Virus record (IMG/VR): IMGVR_UViG_3300033072_001141
Span: 17,794-81,793 of that record
Strand: one strand, 5' to 3'
DNA length: 64,000 nt
Source: a virus
Taxonomy: Duplodnaviria > Caudoviricetes
Numbering within the stretch: the stretch's first letter is position 1; each line of letters starts with the position of its first letter. Positions 1,396-40,459 of the stretch are shown piece after piece. The translations under genes and the position numbers were made by a program. Under the pieces are notes generated by a model. It worked only from the letters and a program-made list of their open reading frames with translations. It was not told the DNA's origin and ran no database searches.

Positions 1396-2002
1396 GGCGG
1401 ACCTCCCCCTTCTGGTTCAGTTCACGGATGTTGGCGATGATCTTCGTCCGTGCTTCAAACTTCTCTTGCCCGATCGGGCCGCCGTTCGCCGCGATGTCGT
1501 CGAACTCGACCACCAGTTCGGCCTGCCTCTTCTTGACCACGAGCATTGAAGCGACCGCATCGAGCAGCCGACGCGCCTGCGCCGACGTGACGGTCCACTG
1601 CCAACTTGTCTTCCACTTCTCGTGGGTCTTCTTCTTGCGACAGACGTGACCACCGATCTTCCGCTTGAGCCACTCGACGAGGGGATAGCTGGTGTTGGTG
1701 ACGGTCACGCGGAGCTGCGCTTTGGCTGCGTTGCCCCAAGTGAACCCAACGCATCCCTCTCCGTCGATGATGCCGGCGATGTAACCGCGCTCCGCGTCCG
1801 AAAGGACCAGCGGTCCAAGCCTGCGCCGCTGAGCGTTCACCCGCGGAACGCCAGCCTCCTTGAGAGCCGCAGACACCGTCGCGTCACCCACTCGCTGATC
1901 CTTGGCGATCTTTCGGATCGACCACCCGGCGCGGTAAAGATCCACGATCCGACCACGCCGGTCGTTGGCCATGTGCTCAATGGCGCTCTTATCCAGCGGC
2001 AC
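1385..2002 (-). CDS. LAGLIDADG homing endonuclease with N-terminal HTH
   Basis: 'GYIAGIIDGEGCV' motif; HTH-like 'WSIRKIAKDQRVGDATVSAALK'; start re-called at GTG 2002 after CAGGAGG RBS. Confidence 0.85.
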   Translation of the reverse strand: MPLDKSAIEHMANDRRGRIVDLYRAGWSIRKIAKDQRVGDATVSAALKEAGVPRVNAQRRRLGPLVLSDAERGYIAGIIDGEGCVGFTWGNAAKAQLRVTVTNTSYPLVEWLKRKIGGHVCRKKKTHEKWKTSWQWTVTSAQARRLLDAVASMLVVKKRQAELVVEFDDIAANGGPIGQEKFEARTKIIANIRELNQKGEVRRAA

Positions 2003-3627: not shown

Positions 3628-5787
3628 TCAGGTCTGAGTCCCGAACAGGATGAAGTTGAACGTCGCCATGCGGCCGGCCACATCGACGGCGAGGCCCGTC
3701 GCGGTGTCGAACATGGCGAAGTAGTGGGCCGTCGGCGACACCTGGACGTACGCGAAGGAGTACCCGAGCGTGTTGGTCGAAGCGAACCCGACCGCGTCAT
3801 CGATCCCCACTCCGGTGGTGACCACGATGATGTGGCTGCCGCCCGCGAGCTGCCTCACCTGGGCGAAGTTGTAGCCGCCGACCACCGTCATGAGCGTCGG
3901 GAACGCCACGCCGGTGTTGGACTTGCCCCACGACTTGCAGATGTTCTTGGCGTAGAGCGTGTTCTTCGCCGTCGTCGAAGTGGGGCTCGGGTTCGACTCG
4001 GTCGTGGACGGTCTGTAGAAGTGCAGCGAGCCGTTCTCCAGGAGCATCTTCCCGGCGCCCACCTCGTATCCGCCGGGCGAGAACGGCACGCCGCCGATGC
4101 CGGCTCCGCCGAGCATCATGTTCGCGTAGTCCCACCCACGCGGAGAGTCCACGGGGATCGACGTGAGCTGGTCGAGCCAGCCCGCCGCGACGGAGCTGAT
4201 CATGTTCATCTCGAACACGCCGAAGATCGTGTTGCAGAAGGAGAACTTCTGGGCCTTCTGCGCGGCTCCGCTGGTGTTGTCCGCGTACCAGAGCGCGTCC
4301 GCGACATCCCACCTCGCGTTGATCGTGAACTCGAACCCGATGGCGGTTCCGGCGGAGGTGATGTCCTCGAACCTCGTGAGGTAGAGGCGGCACCTCTCCG
4401 TGATGCCGCTCAGCGTGCCCTCGTAGATGAGGACGCGTCGATCGCCGGTCGTGTCGCCCATGACCAGACGGGGGATCTCCGACTGGTCGGTCCCGGTGAA
4501 CCCAGAGAACTCGATCTGACCGTTCAGCAGCACGTCGCGCCAGAGACCCTGGCCGCGCATGAGGCGGAACACCTGCTCGATGACCGGAGGCCCCGCGAGC
4601 TGCGACGCCTTCACCATGAGCGCGGTTCGCTGGAGGAACTCGGCCATGGTCGTCGGCGCGTTGCTGTCGAACCCACCGCCGGGGTTCAGCGCGAGGCTGT
4701 CGAACGCCTGGGTGTCGCCCAGGTGAGCCTGCTCGAACACGTCGTCGATCGGGTGGATGCCCTCCACCCAGCACTTCACGTCGTCGAAGTAGATGGACCC
4801 CGCCGCCAGCGACGCGCCGTTGTTGTTGATGCCGACGTGCGGGCGCATCCAGACCGCGCCGGTGGGCACCTCGACCACACCGTCCACGAGCGTGTACGCG
4901 AACGACCCCGACAGCGTGTTGTCCTCGATCCACACCGTGGAGAGGAGGGTCATGTCGTTGTCGTAGAACAGCAGGGCCATGCCCTGGTGACCGCCCACCG
5001 CGATGCCTGGCCACGCGTTGCCGCGCATCCTCAGGCGCCCGCGCACGTACATGCCCGCGGAGACGCGCACGCGACGGTCGTGGATCAGCAGCCGGTTGTT
5101 GACCACGCCTGGGGCCGGCTGTTCGAGCTGGAACTCGCGGGTCCCCTCGTACGGGGCCGTCGTCGAGATGCGGTAGTTCGGCGTGCCGAACCCCGTGCCG
5201 GTCCACCCCTCGATCCCGAAGAACGACGAGAAGCCGGCAGCGAACGCGCGCTCGAATCCGCCGTTCTTGATGATCTGGTGCCAGGAGTCCGGAGCACGAT
5301 CGTCCCACGCCATCCGACGCGCGGTCGGCGTGATGTTCGCCGCCGGGATCGGACCGACGCCAGGGACGACGACGCGCCCGAGGATGACGACGAACGGCGC
5401 CTCGGCCACCGGGGCCGTGAACAGCTCGGCCTGCGTGTAGGCGCGCCAGTTCACGACGGTGGTCGAGCCGATCGTGTAGCCGACGAAGAGGCAGATGTAG
5501 ACCGTCTGGCCAGCCAGCGCGGCGAGGTCGAGCGAGACGATGCCGTCCTGCCTGACGGTGAACTGGAGGTCGTTCACGTCCTGGTAGGAGTAGATTGAGT
5601 CGCCCTCGACCGAGTCGGGGACGATGTTGATGCCGAACCCGGCGCCGGTCGTCTGGAGCTTGCCGCCCCGAACGACGCCCGAGCCGACGAGGCCGAAGAG
5701 CTTCTTGTTCAAGCCCTGCGAGACGTAGGGCTCCTTGAATCGCACCTGCGCGATGGAGTCCCCGGGGTTGTCGAGCGTCGTCGGCAT
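3628..5787 (-). CDS. Tail fibre/receptor-binding protein with carbohydrate-binding-module-like domain
   Basis: 719 aa, beta-rich; 'IIKNGGFE...GW' CBM4/9-like start; position after baseplate genes. Confidence 0.6.
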   Translation of the reverse strand: MPTTLDNPGDSIAQVRFKEPYVSQGLNKKLFGLVGSGVVRGGKLQTTGAGFGINIVPDSVEGDSIYSYQDVNDLQFTVRQDGIVSLDLAALAGQTVYICLFVGYTIGSTTVVNWRAYTQAELFTAPVAEAPFVVILGRVVVPGVGPIPAANITPTARRMAWDDRAPDSWHQIIKNGGFERAFAAGFSSFFGIEGWTGTGFGTPNYRISTTAPYEGTREFQLEQPAPGVVNNRLLIHDRRVRVSAGMYVRGRLRMRGNAWPGIAVGGHQGMALLFYDNDMTLLSTVWIEDNTLSGSFAYTLVDGVVEVPTGAVWMRPHVGINNNGASLAAGSIYFDDVKCWVEGIHPIDDVFEQAHLGDTQAFDSLALNPGGGFDSNAPTTMAEFLQRTALMVKASQLAGPPVIEQVFRLMRGQGLWRDVLLNGQIEFSGFTGTDQSEIPRLVMGDTTGDRRVLIYEGTLSGITERCRLYLTRFEDITSAGTAIGFEFTINARWDVADALWYADNTSGAAQKAQKFSFCNTIFGVFEMNMISSVAAGWLDQLTSIPVDSPRGWDYANMMLGGAGIGGVPFSPGGYEVGAGKMLLENGSLHFYRPSTTESNPSPTSTTAKNTLYAKNICKSWGKSNTGVAFPTLMTVVGGYNFAQVRQLAGGSHIIVVTTGVGIDDAVGFASTNTLGYSFAYVQVSPTAHYFAMFDTATGLAVDVAGRMATFNFILFGTQT

Positions 5788-12872: not shown

Positions 12873-14987
12873 TCATGCTGCCGCCACCTGTCCGGTCAGG
12901 GTGACGGTTCCCTTGGTCACCACCTGCTTCGACTCGATGACGAGGTTGCCGTCTCCATCGACGAGCAGAGCGGGTCCGGTGATGCGGAAGATCGCGTACA
13001 TGATTCCGTCCACGCCCTTCTGACCGGTCGATGGATCGGGGACGATCGAAGCGTAGAGGTCGCTGAGGCGCAAGGACTTCCCGAACGGGCGGACCTGGAG
13101 GAGGCCGTCGAGCGCCTTGCGGACGTTCGAGAGAACGGTCGCCTGGACGTACCCGTCCCGGATGCCGATCGTGCCCGTGATGTCCGCGCGGACCAGGTAC
13201 GGGCCGCCGGAGACAACCTCCACCACCTGGGTGACCTCCTTCCGCTCTTCGAGGTACGCCTCCAGGCTGCGCATGAGGGCGATCGGGGGCTCGGTGAGGA
13301 AGCCGTCCACGTCCCGGGTGAGGATGGGCACCTGGACGAGGTTCGCCTGGCAGTCGGCCGCGAGGAAGGCATCGACGTGATCGAAGATCGCTTGCAGCTC
13401 GTCCTCGACCAGGTTCTCGAACTGGGTCGTGACCCTCGTGATGATGGCGGCGATCGTCGTCTGCTGCGCGGCCAGCTCGGTCGTCTGGACGGAGAGCGCG
13501 TTGGTCACGTCCACGATCGAGGCGTTCGCGTCCGCCGTCGCCTGCTCGATGTTCCCGGTCGCCGTGACGATTGCCTGGACCTGAGCTTCGACGTTCGAGA
13601 GCTGCGTCTTGATGTCGTTGAACGCCGCGTCCTTGAGCAGAAGCGTGGCCGCAGCAAGCCCCTCGTCGGCTCGCACCGACGCGTTGTTCGCGATGACGCG
13701 GATGGACTGTGCCGCCGACCGCGCGTCGATGGCGTCGCCCGCCGCGCTCGGCGTCTGCGGAGCAGTCACGATGGCGTCCAGCGACGCCTGGATGTCGGTC
13801 GTGACGGCCGTGTCGATGTCCCCGCGCGCGCCGTCGATGGCGACGCGGTTGGCCTCGGCGGAGTTGGCCAGCGCCGTCACGTCGTCCGCGACCGGCTGCA
13901 CCAGCCCGCGGATGTTGTTCAGGAGCGCCTGGAGTCCAAGGTCGTTGTCGGCTCCACGAGCCACGAACGCCTGCGCCACGGCCACGGAGCCGGCGAGAGG
14001 GTCGCTGAACGTCTGCGAGAGGCCGACGTAGTCCTCCTGCGTCACGGCGACGTTGCGGGCCTTGAAGAACCGCGGCGCGTTCGCCTTGGCGGTGGTCGTG
14101 TCCTCGGGGTCGGCTCCACCCGAGCTGGGCGCCGGGTTCGTGATGGTGAGGGGGATGGCCTGGAACATCACCACCAGAGGCGCGACCACATCGGTGATCG
14201 TTCCGTTCAACACGAGGCCGCTCTTGCCAGAGGTCGCGGTGTAGACCACCACGATGCTCGCGCCGGAGGCGGGCACGTTGCCGGCGACGCCGTCTCCGAA
14301 ACGAACGGTCGTGGGGTCCGAGTTGAAGTCCACCTCGACCTGGTTGGTCTGATCGAAGGTGATCAGGTCCGTGATGTCCCACGGCACCCCGGCCACCGTG
14401 ACCGAGACGGTGCCCTCCGCGACGAACTTCCCGTCGCCCGGGTTCAGCCGGAAGACCTGGTTCTTGGACCCGTTGGACGTGAACGTCTCGGTCCTGGTCG
14501 TGCCCTCGCGGCAGGCGATGGTCCTGGCTGGCGAGAGGGGGCCCTCTCCGGCCAGGAAGGTCACCGCCTCGGTCGCCTCGAACACCAGGCCGGACGGGCC
14601 CTCGAACTGGAAGCCGACGGGGACGGGGACGTTGAAGGCGTAGATCTGCCGGAGGTTCACCTCCAGATCCACGGAGGCGGCGATGCCGCCAGCCATCTTG
14701 TAGCCGATCTGCCGACAGAGCCGGTTGACGGCCTTCCTGGTCCGCGCCGTCAGGAGATAGCTCTCCGACGCCTGGCGATCGATGTAGAAGCTCAGCGTCT
14801 CCGCGGCCCACGCCACGATGTCGATGAGCATCTGGCCGGTCCCCGAGACGACGAAGTCGTTGAACTCGGTGACGAAAAGGGTCTGAATCCTCGCGACGAT
14901 GTCATCGACGAAGCTGAAAAAGTCCTTGCCGGCGAAGCGGGCCCTGTTGATCTGCGCGGCAGGGCTCTCGATCTGGATCGGATCCAT
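12873..14987 (-). CDS. Baseplate J / T4 gp6-like wedge protein with helical insertion
   Basis: 'KDFFSF...GQMLIDIVAWAAETLSFYIDRQASESYLLTARTR...IGYK', 'VRFGDGVAGNVP', 'GGADPE...NAPRFF..RNVAVTQEDY'. Confidence 0.85.
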   Translation of the reverse strand: MDPIQIESPAAQINRARFAGKDFFSFVDDIVARIQTLFVTEFNDFVVSGTGQMLIDIVAWAAETLSFYIDRQASESYLLTARTRKAVNRLCRQIGYKMAGGIAASVDLEVNLRQIYAFNVPVPVGFQFEGPSGLVFEATEAVTFLAGEGPLSPARTIACREGTTRTETFTSNGSKNQVFRLNPGDGKFVAEGTVSVTVAGVPWDITDLITFDQTNQVEVDFNSDPTTVRFGDGVAGNVPASGASIVVVYTATSGKSGLVLNGTITDVVAPLVVMFQAIPLTITNPAPSSGGADPEDTTTAKANAPRFFKARNVAVTQEDYVGLSQTFSDPLAGSVAVAQAFVARGADNDLGLQALLNNIRGLVQPVADDVTALANSAEANRVAIDGARGDIDTAVTTDIQASLDAIVTAPQTPSAAGDAIDARSAAQSIRVIANNASVRADEGLAAATLLLKDAAFNDIKTQLSNVEAQVQAIVTATGNIEQATADANASIVDVTNALSVQTTELAAQQTTIAAIITRVTTQFENLVEDELQAIFDHVDAFLAADCQANLVQVPILTRDVDGFLTEPPIALMRSLEAYLEERKEVTQVVEVVSGGPYLVRADITGTIGIRDGYVQATVLSNVRKALDGLLQVRPFGKSLRLSDLYASIVPDPSTGQKGVDGIMYAIFRITGPALLVDGDGNLVIESKQVVTKGTVTLTGQVAAA

Positions 14988-15493
14988 TAGGCCACCTGCT
15001 TCCAGGTCCGCCCGACCACGATGTGGTTGACGGTCTGCTCGGCCACCCCGAACTCACGCGCGAGTTCGCGCTGAGTGGAGCCCTCGCGAACCCTCGACTT
15101 GATGACCGATACCTGAGCCTCGGTCAGCCTGGCGCGAACGTGAGCGCTTCCGCGAGGTCTTGCTTCCGGCTTCGTCCTGGCGCCGCTACGGTCCCCTGCG
15201 GCGGTTCTGCCCTTGGCACCTCGGTCAGCCGCGTTGTCCGCATCGGACCCGGCGAAAAGGTGGTCGGGACGAACGCAGCCGGGGTTGTCGCACTTGTGAA
15301 GAGCGCACATCCCATCTGGAAGCGGACCGTTCGTCAGCTCGAACGAAAACCTGTGCGCCCGTACGGTCTTGCGCCTGGTGATCGCGAAGCGGCCATAGCC
15401 CTTCGATGTGGCACCAAGCCAGATCCAGCAGGTGTCGGTCTTGCTGACCTTCGACCAGAACCGGTCTTCGATGGCTTGCGTCTTGACGAACAC
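14987..15493 (-). CDS. HNH homing endonuclease with C-terminal HTH
   Basis: 'RFWSKV..TDTCWIWLG..GYGRF..RAHRFSF..LHKCDNPGCVRPDHLF.G...N' plus 'RLTEAQV..I...TQRELAREFGV'. Confidence 0.9.
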   Translation of the reverse strand: MFVKTQAIEDRFWSKVSKTDTCWIWLGATSKGYGRFAITRRKTVRAHRFSFELTNGPLPDGMCALHKCDNPGCVRPDHLFAGSDADNAADRGAKGRTAAGDRSGARTKPEARPRGSAHVRARLTEAQVSVIKSRVREGSTQRELAREFGVAEQTVNHIVVGRTWKQVA

Positions 15494-15914: not shown

Positions 15915-16423
15915 GCCGCCCTCCAGTTACGGCCCGCCAGGGCCATCCAGATTGCCCCCTGTGACACGCCGTATTCGGCCGCAAGCGCCCTCTGCGTCAC
16001 CCCTCCCTCGACGTATCGCGATCGAATCTTCGCGACCTGCTCCTCCGTAAGCCTCGACCTTCCGTTCTTCCCCCCCGCGTTTGAGGTGCCCTTGTAAGAG
16101 GCTCGGCCCTTGGAGGCCATGTCCCTCATATTGTCTCGCTGCGTACCGATGAACAGGTGGTCGGGTCTCACGCACCTCGGGTTGTCGCAGCGGTGGAGCA
16201 CGCTCATTCCCGGCGGAAGCTCACCGTTCGTCAGTTTCCACGCGATCCTGGCCGCTCCCTCCGGTCGCCTGGATCCATCCGCCTTCGACCCAACGTTGAG
16301 GAACCCATAGCCGTTGCCGAAGTAGGCGCCATCCCACTCCCAGCAGTCGCTCGGACCGGCTCCGCAGAAGCGGACCTTCTCCCAGAACCGCGTCTCTAGC
16401 GGAGTGGTGAACCGGATGGTCAT
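15911..16423 (-). CDS. HNH homing endonuclease with C-terminal HTH
   Basis: 'RFWEKV...CWEWDG...GYG...LHRCDNPRCVRPDHLFIGTQRDNMRDM'; start re-called at ATG 16423. Confidence 0.9.
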   Translation of the reverse strand: MTIRFTTPLETRFWEKVRFCGAGPSDCWEWDGAYFGNGYGFLNVGSKADGSRRPEGAARIAWKLTNGELPPGMSVLHRCDNPRCVRPDHLFIGTQRDNMRDMASKGRASYKGTSNAGGKNGRSRLTEEQVAKIRSRYVEGGVTQRALAAEYGVSQGAIWMALAGRNWRAA

Positions 16424-16596
16424 GCCGCCGCCTCGACGGGACGGAAGGTCTTGCCCGAGAGCACCTGCCAGATGGCCATCTGCGAGACGCCGTACTTCTC
16501 GGCGAGCGCACGCTGGCTCACTCCACCCTGGCTGTACTCCGCCCGGATGATGTCTGCCTGCTCGACGGTGAGCTTCGCTCGTCCTCGCTTCTTCAC
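16420..16596 (-). CDS. 58 aa stand-alone HTH protein paralogous to the HNH C-terminal domain (absent from the ORF track)
   Basis: Translated by hand: MKKRGRAKLTVEQADIIRAEYSQGGVSQRALAEKYGVSQMAIWQVLSGKTFRPVEAAA; ATGA overlap with the HNH start. Confidence 0.75.
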   Translation of the reverse strand: MKKRGRAKLTVEQADIIRAEYSQGGVSQRALAEKYGVSQMAIWQVLSGKTFRPVEAAA

Positions 16597-22500: not shown

Positions 22501-23156
22501 TCAGGAAGCCTCCTGACCGCGTCTGCCCCGAACCCAAACGCCTCGCCGATGGCCGTCACACGATCCACCAGCGCCGACGCGCCGTCTGCCCCCAGTTCGT
22601 AGCCCTCGGAGAGCCTGGTGAGCAGGGATGCGAGCTGCTCGCCGGAGAGGATGTTCGCCTGGATGCTGCCCGCCACGGTGCGCAGCGAGATCCCGAAGTC
22701 GTCGAGGCTGTTGCCGCTTCTGGCGATCCCGGTGACCGCGGAGATCATCTCGTTCGCGTCGATGTCGAGCGAGTAGGCGAGGCCGGAGATCTCGCCACGC
22801 ATCCCTTCCACCTGGTCACGCAGCGGACCAAGTCCGACCGTCGCTCGTCTCCACGTGTTCGAGAACTCGACGCCGAACGACTCCAGACCCGTGTCGCTCG
22901 GGTCGATGCCAGCGCGATCGGCCAGGCCCTCCAGCGAGTCGCCGATCCGATCGAGCTGGGCAAGGCTGATCGCTCCGATCGCGTTGCCGAGCCGCTGGAG
23001 CGAGCTGGATGCACGGCCCGCCTCCTCCACGGAGGTGGCAACACGGTCCATGCCCTCGGCGACGTTGCCGGCGGCGCGAGACGCTCCCGCGTCCCTGGCT
23101 CCGAAGACGAAGCCGAGACCCAGGAGGCGCCCCATGCCAGAGCCAACTCCAGCCAT
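19590..23156 (-). CDS. Tape measure protein
   Basis: 1188 aa, helical, central hydrophobic segments, C-terminal coiled coil; lies between tail chaperone and LysM genes. Confidence 0.8.
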   Translation of the reverse strand: MAGVGSGMGRLLGLGFVFGARDAGASRAAGNVAEGMDRVATSVEEAGRASSSLQRLGNAIGAISLAQLDRIGDSLEGLADRAGIDPSDTGLESFGVEFSNTWRRATVGLGPLRDQVEGMRGEISGLAYSLDIDANEMISAVTGIARSGNSLDDFGISLRTVAGSIQANILSGEQLASLLTRLSEGYELGADGASALVDRVTAIGEAFGFGADAVRRLPEIISAADPVLARFSGLSIEQTTESVTRLSLAMQRYLGGSFEDASQAAIGVFTGLADVRGAMTELVTGTGSELSPLLEELAIASGDVDGAMNMLMSDPIRFAESLRGLVSTMDRSSPAYNRLQTALAQMPEQFQFLVTGGEEASAALEAATQPVGEFEGAFNRMARSGAGTARTFSESMDRLRDGFETSLNSITRHQRGMNMDRVMMQRQREAYDRVAGTVRNLASRDGGLGLLTRAFLNVRRYGMQGFVESVTEVTDRYLPSLSSHLRDALPFVGELGSAFAEIAPTLVPMLLAMNQLGIGSAFRWLRSGASSIVGFLGPWGLLVAGVAAGAGLITYYWEDISNLFESIDWAGIAHEAAQSFMGGLEWLAAGAFNIGAWIRSVDWVSVGQTIGDGFRQAFEFVANLFTGEFNGDIANFFADAFDMPADEIVPTILGLLGDIFSETIGQIPTIARGILGGLFGEEVVDSVIEGIASLPSRMMDQVNGILGIMLWPFEQVFGSDQISMLFHQGGVMAIFYDFYDFVVATFEVMGDAWDDVIAPMAEIAWDVTSEVGSAFADLWSETIQPILDLVGEWWTVDFVDGQEGAQEQIISTGDSFRMMWQRFIRPALYAFVRSQADAINRFRGWIPVFQSVARFAVRSFFAINSAIRNFRTTFEGARDTLAAGWQLIGTRVRRFFTQPILQAGDSFMTIFENIQMTVAGLRISFLQIIQSLVSGIQTAFNAIPEPLRSAMGLVGDSLDAAVSSLNAEVTREESRITAARAEIENERRERAAAVAAQDAEVVAAEAALAAVVAENRARAARERSEAAAAMTRELAGIDSFGERLDSTLERAAERLGAIGTDVQDLEGALPDVATTTTETGTTVVTPVTEDDDTRPPVAARTVEDAAGGAGGGADIGAPRTRARARMEAAAAAEEATGRERARDIAREMVVSAFGPEAVRQLGSALARGGGPTRARGSRAGGSGEEMTR

Positions 23157-23632
23157 TACGAGACCCTCCCAAAGACCGCTTCGGCGTCAGGCCATCCACG
23201 AATCAAACGCCCCCACACGCGCTTCGGATCCACGCCCGCTTCTTCGGCCCATTCGACTAGCAGCGCCGTCCTTCCTCCAATGGTCAGCGACCGACTGTTT
23301 CGCCGGTTCCGGTTTTGCTCGACGGACGTGGCCCACCGCACGTTGCCCGGCTCATACCCACGGTTCACGTCGATGCGATCGAGCGAATGCTTGGAGCTGG
23401 GGCGCCTACCGATGTGCGCAAGGAACGCCGCAAACCCGTCCGTGCCACGCCATTCGTCTGCGACCCGAACACCGCGTCCGCCGTAGAGCGCCCGCTTGGG
23501 GTGGTTCTCGTTGTGGCATCGGGCCTGCATCTCCGACCCGTACATGAGGTTGCCGGACTGGATCCGCGGCGACGTGGACAGGACGGACCACTGCCCGACC
23601 GAAGACGGAACCGCCTTGCGATGTGCAGGCAT
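23156..23632 (-). CDS. HNH/His-Me finger homing endonuclease
   Basis: 'YGGRGVRVADEW..FAAFLAHIGRRP..SLDRIDVNRGYEPGNVRWAT..QNRNRR'; paralogue of 5800-6417. Confidence 0.85.
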   Translation of the reverse strand: MPAHRKAVPSSVGQWSVLSTSPRIQSGNLMYGSEMQARCHNENHPKRALYGGRGVRVADEWRGTDGFAAFLAHIGRRPSSKHSLDRIDVNRGYEPGNVRWATSVEQNRNRRNSRSLTIGGRTALLVEWAEEAGVDPKRVWGRLIRGWPDAEAVFGRVS

Positions 23633-23671
23633 CTACCGTACCTCCATTCCGCCGCCGACACCACCAGCCAC
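23633..23671 (-). pseudogene. 12-codon mini-ORF resembling the tape-measure 5' end (MAGGVGGGMEVR*)
   Basis: GTG GCT GGT GGT GTC GGC GGC GGA ATG GAG GTA CGG TAG; its stop abuts the HNH ATG; tape measure begins MAGVGSGM. Confidence 0.6.
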
Positions 23672-32171: not shown

Positions 32172-32858
32172 TCATGGAGCGGGCACGTAGTCGATCACCA
32201 GCTTGTCCGTTGAGCGCGGAGGGAACTGCATGTGGATCGTGTCGTACCCGGTCCCGATGCCACCGCTCTCCTCGGCCACGTAGTCGTTGCCTGCGCCCTC
32301 GTCGAGCAACACCCCGTTGAGGTACACCGACTCGCGCTCGTAGCCCACGTGGACGAACTTGGCGCCCACGGTGAAGATGAGGTTCACCGAGTTCTTCGTG
32401 CCGAGGACCGGCTCCCGGTATCTCCGCACGGCGGATCCATCGGGTCCGCCGAAGGCCACGTCCTGCGGCGAGACCAGCAGCTCGTTCGAGCTGGTCGCCA
32501 CCGCCATCTGCTGGAAGAAGACGGATCCGGACGGGTAGGTCAGGTCTCCGACCTTTGCCAGACGCCCATCGGTGCCTACCAGGTACGCCACACCGGCGAC
32601 GAGACCGGTGTAGATGCCCACCATCGGACCGTGGAACTGCACAACGCAGAGCGTCGGGCTGTCCTTTCGGACAATGACGCCGACCGCCGGTGGGCTGCCG
32701 GGGACCGTGATGTCCACCCTGGCGACCTGGTATCGGTTCGCGACCTTCGGCCCGGTGATGCGAACGCAGTCGCCGACGAGATCTCCGGCCAAGCAGTTGG
32801 CCTTGCCCAAGATCTTCTGCGCGCGGGGAATCGAGGCTGCGTTCACCTTCGCGGTCAT
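32172..32858 (-). CDS. Virion decoration-type protein
   Basis: N-terminal 'GIYTGLVAG..YLVGTDGRL' and C-terminal 'VYLNGVLL..G.GNDY' modules. Confidence 0.55.
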   Translation of the reverse strand: MTAKVNAASIPRAQKILGKANCLAGDLVGDCVRITGPKVANRYQVARVDITVPGSPPAVGVIVRKDSPTLCVVQFHGPMVGIYTGLVAGVAYLVGTDGRLAKVGDLTYPSGSVFFQQMAVATSSNELLVSPQDVAFGGPDGSAVRRYREPVLGTKNSVNLIFTVGAKFVHVGYERESVYLNGVLLDEGAGNDYVAEESGGIGTGYDTIHMQFPPRSTDKLVIDYVPAP

Positions 32859-32872
32859 CGGGCCCCAGCCTA

Positions 32873-33508
32873 TCAGAGCCGCGCGTCGTCGTTCCTCGTC
32901 ACGGCGCTCACGATCTCGACCGCCGCGGAAGTTGCGCGCGCGGCCACCGGGCTGACCGTCGCCAGCGTCAGTTCGGCCACATGCTCTGGCTGGACCTCAA
33001 GCTCCTGGATGGACACGTCCGAGGAGGTCGCGTCGAAGTCGGAGCCCGCCTTGTACCTCGTCGGCAGGCAGTCGTAGAGGATCCACCCGCGGCCTGGAGT
33101 TCGTAGTGCTGCCTGGAGGAACGCCGTGTCGGGGAACGAGAGATTCGAGCCTGTGACCTGCGACTGCACCTTCCAGCCGAGGAAGTGGACGATCACGAGC
33201 GTGCGCCGAATCGGCTGCCGCCCGACGATGGCCCCGGTGATCCAGTTGTAGAAGTCGGAGTCGTAGAAGCGCGCCCCCCTGGACATCGAGACCGGACCTG
33301 CCTCGGCCTTCTTCACGATCCGGCGCTTGTACTCCCAGTTCCCCGGTTGCACATCGCGCAGCTCGACGGAGATCTCCGGAGCGGTGCAGGCCGAGAAGCC
33401 GAGCGCCGGATCGAAGATGCTGAGCAGCGAGTTCCCGCTGGGTCCCGACGCATCGAAGACCCAGAACGGGAACGCCTGCATCATGTCGAGAAGCCGCGCT
33501 CTCGCCAA
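32873..33508 (-). CDS. Tail tube protein, paralogue 2 (T4 gp19-like)
   Basis: 'GFSACTAPEISVE...GNWEY...VSMSRG..FYNW...W.LYDCLPTRYKAGSDFDATSSDVSIQELEV'; TTG start. Confidence 0.85.
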   Translation of the reverse strand: MARARLLDMMQAFPFWVFDASGPSGNSLLSIFDPALGFSACTAPEISVELRDVQPGNWEYKRRIVKKAEAGPVSMSRGARFYDSDFYNWITGAIVGRQPIRRTLVIVHFLGWKVQSQVTGSNLSFPDTAFLQAALRTPGRGWILYDCLPTRYKAGSDFDATSSDVSIQELEVQPEHVAELTLATVSPVAARATSAAVEIVSAVTRNDDARL

Positions 33509-33511
33509 AAC

Positions 33512-34324
33512 CTACCGTCCTTCCGAGAAGATACCGAACTTGCGTTCGCAACGGATGCCGAGGCTGTCAGCGTAGATTGCAAGCCCAAGCGCGTCCACGT
33601 TCTGACCGAAGAACCGGAGCTGTCCGATGCCGGTCTTCAACATCGACCTCGTACCCTTCGCACCATACTCCATCGCGAGTGCCTGAGCGTCGTCGAGCAT
33701 CCGAACGCTCTTCGATGTCAGCGCGCCAACCAGGTACGACCTCGTGCGTCGCTTGTCCGCCCAGCGGTTCCACGACCCATCGGAGTCCCAGAGTCCGCGA
33801 AGGAAGTGGGTGCGGTGGCCGCCGGCCTGGGGGATGCGGATCCTCTCTGCCTTGTTGCCGTAGCTGAGGCCCAACATCTCCTCGGCCAGCTCCACCAACG
33901 TGATGCCGCCGAGGTAGACGCTGACGCAGCCCTTGCGCTCGTAGAGGGAGCCGCCGCCGCTGAGGTCGCGAACACGCTCGCACACCTCCCGCGTCCCGCA
34001 CAGATGGACCGCCCTCCGCTCGATCCACCCGTCGCCGGAGATGAGGCCCCATGCCCACGCGCTGGCCGGCGTCCACGTCGCCCAAAACTCGCTCTTGAAC
34101 GGCAAGACGCGGTTCATGCGCCCGTTGGCCGAGCGGTAGTCCTCCGGCGTCCGAAGAACCCCGCGCGCCTCTAGGAAGCGCCTTGCACGGTCGCGAGGGA
34201 ACCCTGTGACCCTCGATGCCGCCGCGCTGGAGCCCAGTTCCTCGTAGGCACGAAGGAGCGCTGACTCCATCTCTGGAGTTACCTCACGTCGGTTCCAGGC
34301 AGCGGCGCCGACTACGAACACCAC
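33512..34324 (-). CDS. Two-motif LAGLIDADG homing endonuclease with N-terminal HTH
   Basis: 'AWAWGLISGDGWI' and 'HFLRGLWDSDGSW'. Confidence 0.85.
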   Translation of the reverse strand: MVFVVGAAAWNRREVTPEMESALLRAYEELGSSAAASRVTGFPRDRARRFLEARGVLRTPEDYRSANGRMNRVLPFKSEFWATWTPASAWAWGLISGDGWIERRAVHLCGTREVCERVRDLSGGGSLYERKGCVSVYLGGITLVELAEEMLGLSYGNKAERIRIPQAGGHRTHFLRGLWDSDGSWNRWADKRRTRSYLVGALTSKSVRMLDDAQALAMEYGAKGTRSMLKTGIGQLRFFGQNVDALGLAIYADSLGIRCERKFGIFSEGR

Positions 34325-34330
34325 GCCTGC

Positions 34331-34342
34331 ATCCTAGCACAA
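34331..34342 (-). promoter_or_regulatory. Putative extended -10 promoter TTGTGCTAGGAT, 6 nt before the endonuclease GTG
   Basis: TGnTAnnnT, overlapped by a CCTAGC/GCTAGG inverted repeat; no SD before the start. Confidence 0.5.
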
Positions 34343-34346
34343 GAGG

Positions 34347-34622
34347 CTAGGACTGGGCGACGATCTCCATGGCGCGCGGAAGCGGATCCGAGCACCGAGG
34401 GAAGTGCATGGCGCTGGTCTCCGGGTACGCGGCCGTGCCGAACTCGGCGACCATCACGCCGTCTCGCCATGCGCGAGACCGGCCCGGGTACTTCCGGTCC
34501 TTTCCGCCGGGCACCGTCACAGTGATGATGTCCACGGTGACCTCGTCGGCCTCGATCACCTCTCCCGATTCGAGTCTGACCTGCATGAGCGCCTCCATGT
34601 CGAGCAGCCGCGGACGAGCCAC
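34347..34622 (-). CDS. Small protein whose first 9 codons match tube paralogue 2 (MARPRLLDM)
   Basis: Direct sequence comparison with 33482-33508. Confidence 0.6.
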   Translation of the reverse strand: MARPRLLDMEALMQVRLESGEVIEADEVTVDIITVTVPGGKDRKYPGRSRAWRDGVMVAEFGTAAYPETSAMHFPRCSDPLPRAMEIVAQS

Positions 34623-34652
34623 AGGGAGACCCCCTACGGGAGGATCCCGTGG

Positions 34653-35222
34653 TCAGACGCCGATGCGGGTGCCGTCCGGGCGGATGACGCCCCAGCGCTC
34701 GACGGCCACGTCCATCTCCATGATGCCCACGTCCGAGGTGGAGGCGTCGAGGTCGCCCGCGATCTTCACGCGGATGGGGAACGCCTCGAAGAGGAAGTAG
34801 CGCTTCGCCTCGTTGTTCGGGAACGAGGTCGCGAGGTCGTGCGGGAACGACCGGCCGGCGCGCGTCGCGTGGAACACCGTGATGTCCGTGCGGTACTCGC
34901 GACCCTCGATGGCCGCCAGGACCCAGCTCAGGAACGCCGTGTCGTTCCTGCCGACGCCGCGGGAGAAGGTGCAGTCGTTCACCGTGGGGACGCCCGGGTA
35001 CTTCTCGGTGTAGGTCTTGATGCCCTCCCGGTACTCGGCCGCCTCGACCGTGAACTCCGGGGTGGTGACCGCCGTGAAGCCCGCCTCGGACGTGTCACCC
35101 ACGCCTGGCGAGGGAACACCACCGGGCTGCATCGCGTCGATGGCCGCGAGTCCGTCGATCGCGCCAGCGCGCGCGTGGAAGCGGAAGTTGTGCAGCGGAT
35201 CCGTCGCCTGAGCCCTCGCCAT
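34653..35222 (-). CDS. Tail tube protein, paralogue 1 (T4 gp19-like)
   Basis: 'DPLHNFRF...AGF..VT.PE.TVE..EYREG...KYPG..T..D.TFSRG...FP.RV..GDLDASTSDV.I.EM.V..E'. Confidence 0.9.
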   Translation of the reverse strand: MARAQATDPLHNFRFHARAGAIDGLAAIDAMQPGGVPSPGVGDTSEAGFTAVTTPEFTVEAAEYREGIKTYTEKYPGVPTVNDCTFSRGVGRNDTAFLSWVLAAIEGREYRTDITVFHATRAGRSFPHDLATSFPNNEAKRYFLFEAFPIRVKIAGDLDASTSDVGIMEMDVAVERWGVIRPDGTRIGV

Positions 35223-35240
35223 GTGCCTGCTCCTTCTTCG

Positions 35241-35789
35241 TCAGTAGCTCGGAGTCAGAACCACGTTCCGACCGATGATGTCACCCAGGGTGGTGAACCT
35301 TCCCTCGCCCAGTTCGAGTGGGGTGGGAAGCTGGGACACCCGGTTGATGAACTCTCGGAGGGTCATGTCCTCCTCGGCCATCTCCGTAGCGATCAGGTTG
35401 TACAACGACGGCCACTTCTCGACCATGGCCAGCACGTACAGCCCGCGGTTGAGGGACCAGTGGTTGCGCGACTCGCTCCTCCACCCACCGGAAGAACGCA
35501 GCGCGCGACCGAAAGCCCTGGTCGGATCCATCTCTCGCAGGTCGATACCCTGCTGCGCGAACCTCTCCGCCGCGGACAGACCGTAGGCCGACGCCGCGTT
35601 CTCGCGGATCCATCGGCGCCAGCTCGCCTGGTCCAGACCCTCGTGGCCCATGACCATGACTGGCAGGACGCCCTGCGCCTCCTGCGCCGGCCGAGATGCG
35701 TTGTCGAGACGCACGACACGCACGATCAGCCCCTCGTCGTCCGGAGGGGCGAAGGCGAGCGCGGAATCGAGCTGCTCGGAGAGCTTCAT
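35241..35789 (-). CDS. Hypothetical protein
   Basis: 182 aa; starts MKLSEQL (compare 43382-43705 MRISEQL). Confidence 0.6.
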   Translation of the reverse strand: MKLSEQLDSALAFAPPDDEGLIVRVVRLDNASRPAQEAQGVLPVMVMGHEGLDQASWRRWIRENAASAYGLSAAERFAQQGIDLREMDPTRAFGRALRSSGGWRSESRNHWSLNRGLYVLAMVEKWPSLYNLIATEMAEEDMTLREFINRVSQLPTPLELGEGRFTTLGDIIGRNVVLTPSY

Positions 35790-35802
35790 GGTCTGAACCG
35801 TA

Positions 35803-36585
35803 TCACGCGGCTGGCCGCGCGGTCACTCGGGCGAGCATCGCTGCCGCCGCTCCGGCGGTGACGAGACGAAGTCGCTCGTCGCCGCCCAGCATGATGGGCG
35901 AGCTGATCAGGATCACTCCGCCGGCACCCGTCTGGATCGTGGCCGCCGTGCCATCTGGCAGGACGGTGGAGAGGGTGTAGCTGGCCGCGCCGGTCACCTG
36001 GAGCAGGACCCTGTCCACCCTCCACAGGGCCGGCTTGGACACGGGCTGACCGTCCACGAGCTTCTTGACTGTGAAGTCGAAGTCGAAGACGCCGCCGAAC
36101 GTCGCCTCGGGGAAGAGACGCACACCATCCACATCCACCGGCTCCGACGGAAGATTGGCACCTCCGGTCAGCGACGACACAACGAAGCCGGCGTTCACCA
36201 CCGTGTCTGGCAGCGCCGGCAGGTTACCAGCGGCACCTCCCAGCGCGTTCAGCAGGTTCACCTGGTTGCCGCCGCCGACCGACGCGTAGAGCGCGATACC
36301 CGGCGTGCGGTTGATGGCGGCGATGATGGCGTCGCGGACCGCCGATGCCGACATCGCGTCGGTGACGAAGACGCGCCTCGTCGTGGTCGTCTCCTGGACG
36401 CCGCCGGCCGGGTTCTTGTCGAAGACGAAGGTGAAGACCTCCTTCGCGCGCGCACGCAGCTTGAAGGTCTCCCCCTGCGCCAACAAGAGACCGGCGACGG
36501 TGGTGATCGTGCCCGACGAACCGCCGTTGGCTCCCGTGAACTGGGAGCCCGCTGCGATTCGCTGCTCGATGGTCAGAAAGCTCAC
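35803..36585 (-). CDS. Virion structural protein, hypothetical
   Basis: 260 aa Gly/Ala/Thr-rich; 'DAMSASAVRDAIIAAIN...V.L.N...G.AGN' fibre-type module. Confidence 0.55.
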   Translation of the reverse strand: MSFLTIEQRIAAGSQFTGANGGSSGTITTVAGLLLAQGETFKLRARAKEVFTFVFDKNPAGGVQETTTTRRVFVTDAMSASAVRDAIIAAINRTPGIALYASVGGGNQVNLLNALGGAAGNLPALPDTVVNAGFVVSSLTGGANLPSEPVDVDGVRLFPEATFGGVFDFDFTVKKLVDGQPVSKPALWRVDRVLLQVTGAASYTLSTVLPDGTAATIQTGAGGVILISSPIMLGGDERLRLVTAGAAAAMLARVTARPAA

Positions 36586-36626
36586 CTGCGTCTCCGATCA
36601 GACCGCCCCGAGGAGCGGGCCAGAAA

Positions 36627-37046
36627 TCAGACCGCGACCGCCGCGTCCGTCGAGAACACGCGCCAGGCACCGTTGTCGTAGTACACGGGAACGCCCGTGC
36701 CGGCACCGGCCCCCTGCCCCACCTTCCGTCCGTTGGTGCAGAAAGCGACGAGCCCATCGACGGCGTCCGGAGCGACCGGAAGGTCGGCGAACGCGTAGCG
36801 GGGAAGCATGTCGATCCGCATCGACCCGCGGGTTGGGGCCGCCCTGTCGGGGATCTCGTCGCCGACAGAGACGCTCACCTTGCCGGCGACGACGAGGCTC
36901 TTGAGCTGGGTGTCGCCGTCCAAGTCGGCGATGGTGAGGCCGGCCAGGACGACCGACTGCCCTGCCTTGACCTCCACCTTGGGGGTGGTCAGGAAGACAT
37001 CGTCGTCGGGGGACGTGGTTCCGAGGTTCGTGACTGTCGCATCCAT
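36627..37046 (-). CDS. Hypothetical structural protein
   Basis: 139 aa; GGAGGAG RBS; C-terminal 'AFCTNGRK...GTGVPVYYDNGAW'. Confidence 0.6.
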   Translation of the reverse strand: MDATVTNLGTTSPDDDVFLTTPKVEVKAGQSVVLAGLTIADLDGDTQLKSLVVAGKVSVSVGDEIPDRAAPTRGSMRIDMLPRYAFADLPVAPDAVDGLVAFCTNGRKVGQGAGAGTGVPVYYDNGAWRVFSTDAAVAV

Positions 37047-37070
37047 GTTCGCGCTCTCCTCCGAGGGGGT

Positions 37071-37391
37071 TCAGATCTGTCCGGACTTGCGTCCGATGTA
37101 GGCACACAGGGCCTTGGGGTCCTTCACCCCCTTGCAGCACTCCGTGAACATCTTCTCGCACGACGAGAACTCCTGCCCCGTCGCGTTCTTGCCCTTGAAC
37201 GAGCCGTCCGCGTCCATGTACTTCTTGCGGCACTCGTTGTCGCAGCTCATCGCTTCGAGCAGCGCTTCCTCCTGGAGACCCGAGGAGCGAGCGAGCGTGC
37301 GGATGACCTCGTTGAGGTCCCCGCAGCACGGCCTGGCGGCGCCCCCTTCGAGGACGCCGTTCAGCTCTTCGCTCAGCTCCCTGAGTCCCAT
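37071..37391 (-). CDS. Small Cys-rich protein (8 Cys)
   Basis: 106 aa; AGGAG RBS; directly after the sheath gene. Confidence 0.6.
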   Translation of the reverse strand: MGLRELSEELNGVLEGGAARPCCGDLNEVIRTLARSSGLQEEALLEAMSCDNECRKKYMDADGSFKGKNATGQEFSSCEKMFTECCKGVKDPKALCAYIGRKSGQI

Positions 37392-37417
37392 TCGGTCTTC
37401 TCCTGGTCAGCGGTCGA

Positions 37418-39913
37418 TCAGCCGGTCGAGCTGAACTTCTGCTGGATGCGGAAGATGATGAACTCGCCCGGCTTGTTGGGCGCGATGTAGATGTCGCAGA
37501 TGACCTCGCCCGCCTCCTCGTTGTCCGCCGTGTTGTTCGACTCGTCGCAGATGACCGAGACGGCGTCCGTGAAGGTGGTGCCGGCGAAGTAGCCCTGGTT
37601 GAAGAGGTTCCGGAGGAACGACTCGACCGAGACCTGGATGCGCTGCCGGAGCGACGCGCCCACGTTCTCGAAGACGAAGCCGTGCGTGCCGTTGTAGATG
37701 CTGCTCTTGAGGAAGTTGAAGAGCCGGCGCACCTGGACGTAGCGGAAGTCGTCCGGCGGGTTCTCCAGCGTGCGCGCGCCCCAGACCGCGCGGCCGGTCT
37801 GCGGGGTGTCCACCAGGGCGTTGACCTGGCTCTGGAAGAACGTGTCGATCTCGGCGAACTCCAGCCGGCGCTCCAGGCCCTCCGAGAAGAGCAGGCGTCC
37901 GTCCTCGGTTCCCGCGGGGGCCTTGGCGACGTTCTTGTTCGTGTCCGTGCGCGCGTACACGCCCGCGACGTGTCCGATCGGCGGGATGTTGGCGCCGCGC
38001 TCCGTGAACGGATCGGTCACGCGGATGTACGGGTAGTAGAGCGCGCCGTAGCTCGACGAGATGCCGAGCGTGAAGCGCCTCCAGTCGCGCACCTGCTGGG
38101 GCGTCATGCCCGGCGGGCTCGCGAGGATGATGAACCACTTCTGGTTCGTCTCGGCCTCGGCGATCTGGTCGCTGGCCATCGTCACGTCGCCGGCCGCGTC
38201 CGGGATGCCGACGTTCAGCAGCTCGTCGGTGGTGAGCAGCGCGTACATGCCGCGCCGATCGGACTTGAGGGCCGGGCTGGTCATCTCGGCGCGACCGATG
38301 CCCGCCACACCGTCCGACCCGCCGGTGAGGGCGTCGGAGGTGGCCGTGTCCGCCGGGGTGACACGCGACGAGATCTGGATGATCGAGCCGGGGCGCGCAC
38401 CGGTCGGGACCGCGAGGTTCGAGGTCTCCGCCTCCGAGACCGCCGCCACGGTCCGGAAGGCGATCTTGCCGGACGTGTAGTTGACCCGGTTGTAGCCGGT
38501 GGGGGGCGCCGGATCGACATCGCCGACCAGGTTGCCGTTGCCGTCGTCCGTGATCGTGCGCGAGACGCCGGCCACGTCGGTGTAGGTGATCGAGACCGAG
38601 CCCGGCTGCACCGGCGTCGCCAGCGCGTCCGTGCGGAACCCGACCGGGATCGACGGGAAGCCGTCCGGGTCGGCCGCCGCGGTCGAGCCCCAGTTCTGGT
38701 TCGAGCCGTTGCCCGAGCCGCCGGAGCGGGTGCGCAGCTTGCCGTTGAGCGACGACGGGATGACCGGCTCGTTCGCGGGATCGACCAGCGTGATGAGGTC
38801 CGACCCCTGGGTGGGATCGTTGATGGCGGTGATGACGTAGTCCGGGTCGGACGGGTCCGTCATCGAGAGGTTCAGGAAGGTCTCCTGGACCTCGCCGTCG
38901 AGGAGAACCTGCACGTCCGCGCGCGAGTAGGTCGCGGTGGAGCGCGTGAAGGAGTCCTCGTTGCCCCGGACCTGGACCTCCAGGTCGTTGCCCCACGCGC
39001 CCTTCGAGATCGGATCGATGTCGAAGGCGCGGCACGTGTAGGCCGCGAGGACCGAGTTCCCGCGGGCCGGCGTCGCGGGGACCGTGGTGGTGAACGCGTA
39101 GGCGCCCGTCGCGTAGTCGATGGTGCCGGGCGCAGCGAGGTCGGCACCGGTCAGCGCGCCAGATCCATCGTCCGTGATCGTCGAGAGCGCGCCCTCCGGC
39201 GTGTAGCTCATCGTGATCGCGGTCGCGTTGTCCGGAGCCTGCCCCGTCTCCGCCGACAGCGCCCAGTGGCCGGTCTTGTAGTCGATGAAGCCGCGCGTGT
39301 CGCCCGCGCCGTCCTTGAGGATGCCGTCGAAGGCCGGGTCCGTGTAGGTGTACGGCGCGGCGGCGACGGTCGTCGTCAGCGTGACCGTGCCAGGGACGAT
39401 CTTGGCTCCGCCAGCGACGGATACACGACCGGCGAAGTCGAGCAGGACGCTGTCCGTGGCCGGGGAGTTGTTGGTGGCCGCCGCGACGACCGGCGTGCCG
39501 AGCCGGCGCCAGGTGATCGACACCGACGACGCCTGGACCTGCGGCGCCTGCGCGAGAGACCCGGCGAACGCCACGACCGTTCCGTCGCCGGTCTCGATGG
39601 CCTCCTCGGTCACGTCGCTGGTGATGAAGCCGTCGGCCGCCACGGCGTCCGAGGCGACCACGCGCACGACGTACGCACGCCGACCGCCGTTCGCGAAGAA
39701 CGCGAAGAGGTGCAGCGGCACGCCGCTCTGGTCGGTGAAGTCGCCGAAGGTCCGCGTGAACTGCTCGAACGACGACACCAGGACGGCCTCGTCGGTCGGA
39801 CCGCGGAGCGTGAATCCGACGGTGCCGAAGGTGCTCGTGGACACGCCCGTGATGGGGGCGACGCCACGACGCCGCTCCTCGACGTAGACGCCCGGGTGCA
39901 ACCTTTCGACCAT
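37418..39913 (-). CDS. Contractile tail sheath protein
   Basis: 'HPGVYVEE...STGTFG..RGP..AVLVSSFEQF.RTFG..FFANGG.RAYVVRV'; C-terminal 'PPIGHVAGVYARTD..VAKAPAG..VWGARTL..YVQVRRL..FE'. Confidence 0.95.
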   Translation of the reverse strand: MVERLHPGVYVEERRRGVAPITGVSTSTFGTVGFTLRGPTDEAVLVSSFEQFTRTFGDFTDQSGVPLHLFAFFANGGRRAYVVRVVASDAVAADGFITSDVTEEAIETGDGTVVAFAGSLAQAPQVQASSVSITWRRLGTPVVAAATNNSPATDSVLLDFAGRVSVAGGAKIVPGTVTLTTTVAAAPYTYTDPAFDGILKDGAGDTRGFIDYKTGHWALSAETGQAPDNATAITMSYTPEGALSTITDDGSGALTGADLAAPGTIDYATGAYAFTTTVPATPARGNSVLAAYTCRAFDIDPISKGAWGNDLEVQVRGNEDSFTRSTATYSRADVQVLLDGEVQETFLNLSMTDPSDPDYVITAINDPTQGSDLITLVDPANEPVIPSSLNGKLRTRSGGSGNGSNQNWGSTAAADPDGFPSIPVGFRTDALATPVQPGSVSITYTDVAGVSRTITDDGNGNLVGDVDPAPPTGYNRVNYTSGKIAFRTVAAVSEAETSNLAVPTGARPGSIIQISSRVTPADTATSDALTGGSDGVAGIGRAEMTSPALKSDRRGMYALLTTDELLNVGIPDAAGDVTMASDQIAEAETNQKWFIILASPPGMTPQQVRDWRRFTLGISSSYGALYYPYIRVTDPFTERGANIPPIGHVAGVYARTDTNKNVAKAPAGTEDGRLLFSEGLERRLEFAEIDTFFQSQVNALVDTPQTGRAVWGARTLENPPDDFRYVQVRRLFNFLKSSIYNGTHGFVFENVGASLRQRIQVSVESFLRNLFNQGYFAGTTFTDAVSVICDESNNTADNEEAGEVICDIYIAPNKPGEFIIFRIQQKFSSTG

Positions 39914-39916
39914 GAC

Positions 39917-40459
39917 TCAGCCTCCTGCGACGTTGGCGAGCCTGAAAGCCCGCTGATCCTGGATCCGACCCACCAGCGACACGACGTTGTCTACATGCTC
40001 AGGGAATCGACGAATCCATCCCTTTTTGCCGTGGAGGTTCTGGTGGATGAACACCACGAGCTGCCTCCAGAGAGCGTAGTCGAGCGACTTCTTGCTCTGG
40101 AGCGGAAAGCGATCGAAGTGGGGAATGACCTTCTCGACGAGTGAGTCGATATCCTCCACGCGCAGCGACACGGACGGGTTGGCACCTGGAACCGAAGCCC
40201 TGCGTTTGGACGAAACGGGCTTCTCCCTGACGGTGCCGGCCCCGAAGTACGCGACCAGCTTGTCGAGCGTCCGTCTGTCGTCGGCGCGAAGCTGGACTTG
40301 CAGTCCTACGTACTGATTGAAACACCGGTGGATCCGTCCCGACTGGGCCAGCTTCTCCTTGGCGGAGTACGAGGCGTAGAAGCATCCCTCGCCATCGATC
40401 AGGCCGGTGACCCACCAGCCGAACGACGGATCGTCGGGAAGCCTCAGACGCTCGACCAT
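39917..40459 (-). CDS. Single-motif LAGLIDADG homing endonuclease
   Basis: 'WWVTGLIDGEGCFY', 'VIPHFDRFPLQSKKSLDYALW'. Confidence 0.9.
   Translation of the reverse strand: MVERLRLPDDPSFGWWVTGLIDGEGCFYASYSAKEKLAQSGRIHRCFNQYVGLQVQLRADDRRTLDKLVAYFGAGTVREKPVSSKRRASVPGANPSVSLRVEDIDSLVEKVIPHFDRFPLQSKKSLDYALWRQLVVFIHQNLHGKKGWIRRFPEHVDNVVSLVGRIQDQRAFRLANVAGG

Follow-up and report, generated by a model that had tools for sequence, protein, structure and literature searches.

The closest known parallel to the element described here comes from fungal mitochondria, where mobile endonuclease open reading frames (mORFs; ORF, open reading frame) enter the 3' ends of atp6, atp9, cox2 and nad3. With them comes a C-terminus that is divergent and largely synonymous, and the native one is left downstream (PMC3630166; also PMC7487136). 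The resulting "gene hybrids" have been described for atp6, atp9, cox2 and nad3 of a Glomus sp. (PMC3630166), and that paper cites a further one, in atp6 of Allomyces macrogynus. Among phages, the T4-like free-standing homing endonucleases, encoded by seg and mob genes, are known for "intronless homing", and in Aeromonas phage Aeh1 mobE splits nrdA (PMC2988022). Here we analyze a stretch of 64,000 nucleotides from the IMG/VR virus record IMGVR_UViG_3300033072_001141, called the window below, in which a cassette of ~1.1 kb with a LAGLIDADG endonuclease gene lies in the 5' end of the second of two tail tube genes. We consider it very likely that a free-standing LAGLIDADG homing endonuclease cassette invaded this tube gene, without the help of an intron or an intein.

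The cassette works like an mORF while standing outside that group. In both cases a LAGLIDADG (or GIY-YIG) ORF sits in the terminal coding region of an essential gene, with no intron. A divergent, mostly synonymous, in-phase copy of the gene end is carried along, the native end lies beside it and is closer to the relatives, and several genes of one genome are affected. Whereas the fungal elements replace the 3' end, with the inserted C-terminus upstream of the ORF, the phage cassette is their mirror image and replaces the 5' end, a position that additionally requires a ribosome-binding site (RBS) and a start codon from the element. The two also differ in that the displaced native piece keeps a live start here, driving the first ORF of the element, and in that the host is a phage and not an organelle. 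Like the seg and mob genes, the window has an intron-less phage endonuclease gene that is next to or within essential genes, is variably present and has co-converted flanks, and whose translation may depend on, or be held down by, ORFs and hairpins nearby. The T4 genes, however, are either intergenic or overlap the upstream gene at its end, and they encode GIY-YIG or HNH enzymes where the window has a LAGLIDADG enzyme. Intron- and intein-encoded enzymes such as I-DmoI and PI-SceI are of the same LAGLIDADG family and likewise invade conserved coding sequence, but here there is no splicing element at the RNA or protein level, and the host gene is kept whole by duplication. We found no description of duplicated, re-spelled gene starts beside phage endonuclease genes in the T4 review (PMC2988022), the ICP1 study or full-text literature searches, which is no proof that none exists.

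The tail tube junction with and without the cassette

The window belongs to an 81.8-kb IMG/VR viral contig (estimated 43% complete, ~66-69% GC) whose source is an uncultured, high-GC phage of roughly 190 kb. All genes around the tube locus are on the minus strand. Along the direction of transcription, the tail sheath gene (37418-39913) is followed by four small genes, tube gene 1, a spacer, a 91-amino-acid (aa) ORF, the LAGLIDADG ORF and tube gene 2. Both tube genes encode gp19-like proteins that match PF06841 and phrog_4542 ("tail tube protein"). Tube gene 1, the upstream neighbour, spans 34653-35222 (189 aa; E = 5.8e-15, 55.7 bits), and tube gene 2, at full length from its TTG codon, spans 32873-33508 (211 aa; E = 3.7e-11, 43.4 bits against a cut-off of 28.2).

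The first nine codons of tube gene 2 occur twice. On the minus strand, the upstream copy (34622-34596) reads GTG GCT CGT CCG CGG CTG CTC GAC ATG, and the downstream copy (33508-33482) reads TTG GCG AGA GCG CGG CTT CTC GAC ATG. The copies agree at 21 of 27 bases and at eight of nine residues, and their longest identical runs are 7 and 9 nt. One of the six base differences falls in the start codon, four are synonymous, and the last exchanges Pro for Ala. No other 27-mer on either strand of the window reaches 19 matches to the tube-2 start, and a match of 21 of 27 was attained in none of 200 shuffles. The repeat is not due to chance, and the duplicate tube-gene starts noticed in the sequence-only reading, an earlier examination of this stretch made from its letters and ORFs, stand as described. 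About 40 relatives of tube protein 2 keep the N-terminal motif M-A/S-R-x-R-x-x-D-M/L-x-Q..FW, down to 35% overall identity, which points to constraint on the first nine residues. Because these residues are conserved, an insertion after codon 9 would persist only if they were supplied anew.

Related phages indicate which copy is the original. In IMG/VR, 40 loci are related to tube protein 2, which has no relative among the cultured phages queried with it. Two of the loci, L005 and L008, are contained in complete genomes with terminal repeats (G001, 197.9 kb, and G002, 186 kb, respectively), and their tube protein 2 is 83-86% identical to that of the window. A third, L004, is an 11.5-kb fragment with ~90% DNA identity to the window, 96% identity in tube protein 2 and 99.5% identity in tube protein 1. 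In both complete genomes, tube gene 2 starts 30-31 nt past the tube-1 stop, behind the same CCGTAGG(G/A)GGTC spacer, and its first codons are GTG GCT CGx CCx CGT CTT CTx GAC ATG ATG CAG. Because these empty sites share their spacer, position, start codon and Pro4 with the upstream copy of the window, we take that copy to be the native start. The native 30-nt spacer and ribosome-binding region of tube gene 2 (34623-34652), which aligns with the empty-site spacer of G001 and G002 (CCGTAGGGGGTC motif), is still in place. The native GTG and codons 1-9 (MARPRLLDM, 34596-34622) are now displaced upstream of the gene they belonged to and head the 91-aa ORF.

Collinear blastn comparisons delimit the insertion. 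Window positions 34596-39925 and 32900-33496 are contiguous in G002. Their matches share 15 nt of subject sequence in that genome and 26 nt in G001, and this overlap is the duplicated start. Homology to both genomes breaks at 34596, exactly after codon 9. Since the flanks are contiguous or overlapping in the relatives, positions 33497-34595 of the window are extra DNA, the inserted cassette. It is positioned after codon 9 of tube gene 2, so placed that the native RBS, GTG and nine codons run in frame into its first ORF. Tube genes 1 and 2 are directly adjacent, with nothing between them, in 38 of the 40 related loci, and the only relative with an intervening gene is L004, where that gene also encodes an endonuclease. 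Among collinear relatives, the site reads as a presence/absence polymorphism, empty in G001 and G002 and otherwise filled in L004. These alleles bear out the earlier proposal of a two-gene mobile insertion of ~1.1 kb that captured the native start, with the tube gene now apparently relying on a TTG from the cassette.

The last ~65 bases of the cassette supply an RBS, the TTG start and re-spelled codons 1 to ~16, so that a full-length tube protein would still be made. Within the new translation-initiation region (33509-33524), a GGAAGGA (33518-33524) in the last endonuclease codons is followed by the endonuclease stop TAG (33512-33514), one codon, the TTG and the re-spelled codons. In the folding model, 193 of 200 shuffles fold better than this region (z = +1.46), so it is likely to be open and accessible to ribosomes. 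The replacement start and re-spelled codons (MARARLLDMMQAFPFW, 33461-33508) include AGA GCG near the start and GCG TTC at codons 12-13. With TTG as the predicted true start of tube gene 2, the N-terminus would be (M)ARARLLDMMQAFPF, with Ala4 and Phe13. The first 48 bases of the gene are identical to L004 at 33 positions (69%), compared with 90-100% in most later 48-base blocks, and four of the eight residue differences between the two proteins fall within residues 4-14. These ~48 bases are a short foreign tract of the sort that co-conversion brings in.

In L004, this junction is occupied by another LAGLIDADG gene, of 218 aa (L004:3352-4008), whose product is 33% identical to the window enzyme over 116 aa. 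It starts 4 nt past the tube-1 stop and ends overlapping the tube-2 ATG. A third spelling of tube-2 codons 1-16 follows it, and no remnant of the native start is left. The two sister phages therefore have rival endonuclease genes in the same place, both with codons 1-16 of their own. Rival alleles in two phages and empty sites in two more are what homing endonuclease genes with co-converted flanks should produce.

More distant relatives (L006, L007, L009 and L012-L015) have a conserved element of ~55 nt between the tube genes, at ~3945-4000, upstream of tube gene 2. It consists of an outer stem, GGCCCA/UGGGCC, around a small hairpin just 5' of the RBS, with a few compensatory pair changes, and it is not present in the clade of the window. 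This element may be a translational or processing signal.

The endonuclease gene and the passenger ORF

The free-standing homing endonuclease gene (33512-34324, minus strand, 270 aa) is placed in the LAGLIDADG family by a match to PF14528 (E = 4e-6, above the cut-off), and it also matches phrog_4645 ("endonuclease"). In its product, an N-terminal helical region precedes the motifs LISGDG (~residues 92-99) and LWDSDG (~residues 178-183). Both motifs are conserved in an alignment with the proteins P0003 and P0004 and with the L004 enzyme, the acidic position of the first being D or E. The gene is intact, with acidic residues in both motifs. An AlphaFold model is of low confidence (predicted local distance difference test, pLDDT, 57.5); its secondary-structure elements follow the order expected for a tandem alpha-beta-beta-alpha-beta-beta-alpha fold. 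The top fold matches of this low-confidence model in PDB are all LAGLIDADG proteins, led by I-DmoI, at a template modelling (TM) score by target of ~0.5 and an E of ~5e-3, short of the 0.001 threshold. The nearest relatives of the enzyme are 27-34% identical and are located before gp25 genes in other phage contigs. The IMG/VR search returned no endonuclease relatives, and there were none among cultured phages.

The captured GTG heads an orphan passenger ORF (34347-34622, minus strand) of 91 aa, or of 79 aa if read from an ATG at 34586. Because this internal ATG, 12 codons into the ORF, is preceded by its own GGAGG (34592-34596) at a spacing of 5 nt, the passenger probably starts there, as a 79-aa gene that initiates on its own and stands in frame with the captured start by chance or selection. 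The GC content at its three codon positions (0.66/0.48/0.87) follows the coding pattern of this genome. Searches of 5.8 billion clusters and 1.8 billion representatives returned only the ORF itself as a homologue. It has no PHROG match and no Pfam match, including at E values up to 5, and its structure is uninformative, with a TM score below 0.5 in the ESM Atlas and a pLDDT of 42 for the AlphaFold model. Two possible origins of the passenger were tried and rejected. It shows no similarity to longer endonucleases such as P0003 and P0004, of which it might have been a detached N-terminal domain, and as a candidate diverged piece of a tube gene it matches in the nine captured residues and nowhere else.

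A hairpin with a 6-bp stem, CCUAGC/GCUAGG (34333-34351, minus strand), spans the passenger stop and the AGGA before the endonuclease GTG. Positions 34290-34380 fold at -40.6 kcal/mol (z = -2.2), and 5 of 200 shuffles fold equally well. In T4, similar hairpins, together with coupling to ORFs upstream, hold endonuclease genes in check (PMC2988022), and by analogy the hairpin may have a regulatory role here. The sequence-only reading had seen a promoter-like motif in this interval, between the 91-aa ORF and the LAGLIDADG gene. That idea found no support: no sigma-70 consensus site is found in 32800-35300, and the interval holds the hairpin. A search for terminator-like signals gave a single match, inside the endonuclease ORF, which is no more than expected by chance.

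Alternative explanations and a possible route of insertion

The 91-aa ORF could be an ordinary resident gene that owes its nine tube-like residues to an old local duplication, with the endonuclease having landed in the intergenic spacer. Its codon-position GC pattern, which is that of the genome, would suit such a gene. We nonetheless hold this explanation to be very unlikely. Apart from L004 with its other endonuclease, no relative has a gene between the tube genes, and the databases searched hold no homologue of the ORF. Empty-site homology ends exactly after codon 9, and the ORF contains a second GGAGG and ATG 12 codons from its beginning. With no intervening gene in 38 of 40 loci and no homologue beyond the ORF's own record, the ORF is not a conserved core gene beside the tube genes, the outcome by which the sequence-only reading would have been refuted.

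A contig assembled from a metagenome, with a cassette that is a singleton, also raises the question of an assembly chimera, in which two co-occurring strains, with and without the endonuclease, were joined at the shared CTCGACATG. However, the longest exact run common to the two copies is 9 nt, far under assembler k-mer sizes, and the same layout recurs at four more sites of this contig, each with in-frame or coupled junctions. The chance that the arrangement is an artifact of this kind is very small.

LAGLIDADG genes are common in group I introns, and an intron whose first exon ends at LLDM had been offered as an alternative when the insertion was first noticed. A self-splicing group I or group II intron of this kind would join the nine upstream codons to ATG CAG GCG at 33481. 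The join from 34596 to 33481 is in frame and the insert ends in G. However, a cmscan search of 32500-35500 against Rfam, on both strands and at E values up to 10, found no intron family. A U before the 5' splice site is almost universal in group I introns, but the base before the putative site is G. Additionally, all but ~35 of the ~1100 bases inserted belong to ORFs with strong codon periodicity, making the insert ~96% coding and leaving no space for a ribozyme core. Splicing would make a second in-frame start, an RBS and synonymous re-spelling unnecessary, and the L004 endonuclease gene occupies the same place without any upstream exon remnant. Taken together, these features make an intron highly improbable, and that alternative is set aside.

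Weakest of all, to the point of being nearly negligible, is an intein or split-intein "fractured gene", with extein-N plus N-intein in the 91-aa ORF, the C-intein in tube gene 2 and the endonuclease standing free between the two halves. Genes fractured in this way are known (PMC2677866), and residues 11-28 of the ORF look, by eye, loosely like intein block A, but there is no Hint/intein Pfam match at E values up to 5, the 91-aa and endonuclease ORFs are in different frames with stops between them, no C-intein-like end (His-Asn, then Ser/Thr/Cys) precedes the tube body, the complete native N-terminus is repeated although trans-splicing would not need it, and the structure model has no confident fold.

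Invasion by a free-standing endonuclease cassette is the reading that we prefer, and it suggests the following route. During co-infection, the enzyme would target the conserved coding sequence at the 5' end of tube gene 2 and cut insert-free alleles near codons 9-15, with a cassette-carrying genome as the repair template. On the left, homology would be provided by tube gene 1, the spacer and the nine native codons; on the right, by the body of tube gene 2. The re-spelled codons would travel with the cassette, turn the carrier into a poor substrate for the enzyme it encodes and, with identical runs of no more than 9 nt left, make repeat-mediated deletion less likely. At the first arrival, the right end of the break may have recombined homologously, and the left end, which stopped at the cut, may have been linked to DNA upstream of the cassette through microhomology or without homology, so that the native start stayed behind. 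A fully homologous event would leave no remnant, as L004 illustrates. Once in place, the passenger ORF and the hairpin may couple translation of the endonuclease to the strong start of the tube gene.

Several observations weigh against this account. The collections searched hold no second copy of the cassette, the endonuclease, the passenger ORF or the re-spelled start, and exact and degenerate copies of the re-spelled start, sought in viral and metagenome contigs, gave no hit; with no second copy there is no direct sign of recent mobility and no donor. Around the insertion point, the downstream copy differs from the empty sites by only a few bases, and self-immunity through re-spelling is no more than plausible. 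The ATG at codon 9 or codon 10 is an alternative candidate for the start of tube gene 2 in place of the predicted TTG, and the endonuclease model is, as noted, of low confidence. Furthermore, the closest relatives of the enzyme, before gp25 (checked in L054), have no start duplication, so the duplication is not obligatory for this enzyme lineage.

Start duplication at other nuclease genes in the window

Four other nuclease genes in the window show a duplicated start of the gene downstream; in G002, none of the four sites is occupied. The tube gene stands apart from them in that its captured start heads a passenger ORF and not the nuclease itself. At the sheath gene, a 180-aa LAGLIDADG_1 gene (39917-40459, minus strand; PF00961, E = 8e-15) has taken over the native sheath upstream region and the start ATG GTC GAG CGT CTG (MVERL). 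The sheath gene itself (start 39913) restarts with the re-spelled ATG GTC GAA AGG TTG behind a GGAGG in the last codons of the nuclease, and this site is empty in G001 as well. Upstream of a 245-aa gene (658-1395, minus strand), a LAGLIDADG gene with a helix-turn-helix (HTH) domain (1385-2002, minus strand) begins at GTG 2002 with MPLDKS. The downstream gene also starts MPLDKS, differently spelled (Ser as AGC versus TCG), and in G001 this site holds ~720 nt of other filling with no clear ORF.

The tape-measure site (23156-23671, minus strand) has a 12-codon leader, VAGGVGGGMEVR, which runs from 23671, keeps the native start and ends in a stop that overlaps the ATG of the next ORF. That ORF (23156-23632, minus strand, 158 aa) is a nuclease candidate by an HNH-like motif only, with no Pfam match. 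The tape-measure gene restarts re-spelled as MAGVGSGM, and the junction reads ATG GAGG, like that of the tube-gene site. At the fourth site, gp25 (start 15914) shares MTIR with the HNH_3 gene upstream of it (start 16423, minus strand). A 58-aa HTH ORF (16420-16596) precedes this HNH_3 gene. A sixth nuclease gene, also HNH_3 (14987-15493), lies between gp25 and a baseplate-J-like gene without any duplication; it is absent in G002 and present in G001.

Whether start capture with a re-spelled replacement is a general, intron-free strategy of free-standing LAGLIDADG and HNH enzymes for entering the opening codons of essential phage structural genes is, in our judgment, an evenly balanced question, with at least five sites in its favor here. 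Under such a strategy, the upstream junction would mark the cut site, left by repair that was homologous at one end and non-homologous at the other, and the captured start would be reused either directly or through a leader or passenger ORF. It would amount to a third route into an essential gene besides introns and inteins, in which the endonuclease carries a spare gene beginning complete with translation signals. Five such events in one 64-kb stretch, and a rival in a sister phage, suggest that the process may be routine in some phage lineages. For annotation, orphan mini-ORFs or fusion ORFs that share N-terminal residues with the next gene would mark endonuclease insertions and miscalled starts. 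In addition, the filled, empty and alternatively filled alleles offer a natural target set for mapping a new LAGLIDADG specificity.

Three features of G001 are separate observations. At its tape-measure site (L052, ~G001:C1:113900-114800), a 274-aa ORF starts MGMGGAGAV and the tape-measure gene runs from an internal MSRLLGLGF, which may be another captured start with a shortened replacement. The sole LAGLIDADG_3 match in G001 (L047, G001:C1:160024-160236) lies inside an 815-aa open frame, possibly as an intein-borne endonuclease; no LAGLIDADG_3 match occurs in G002. Finally, the G001 sheath protein (L045/L046, G001:C1:129480-129745; open frame of 926 aa) departs from those of the window and G002 by ~88 aa inserted in frame behind residue 111, which look like a variable surface domain.

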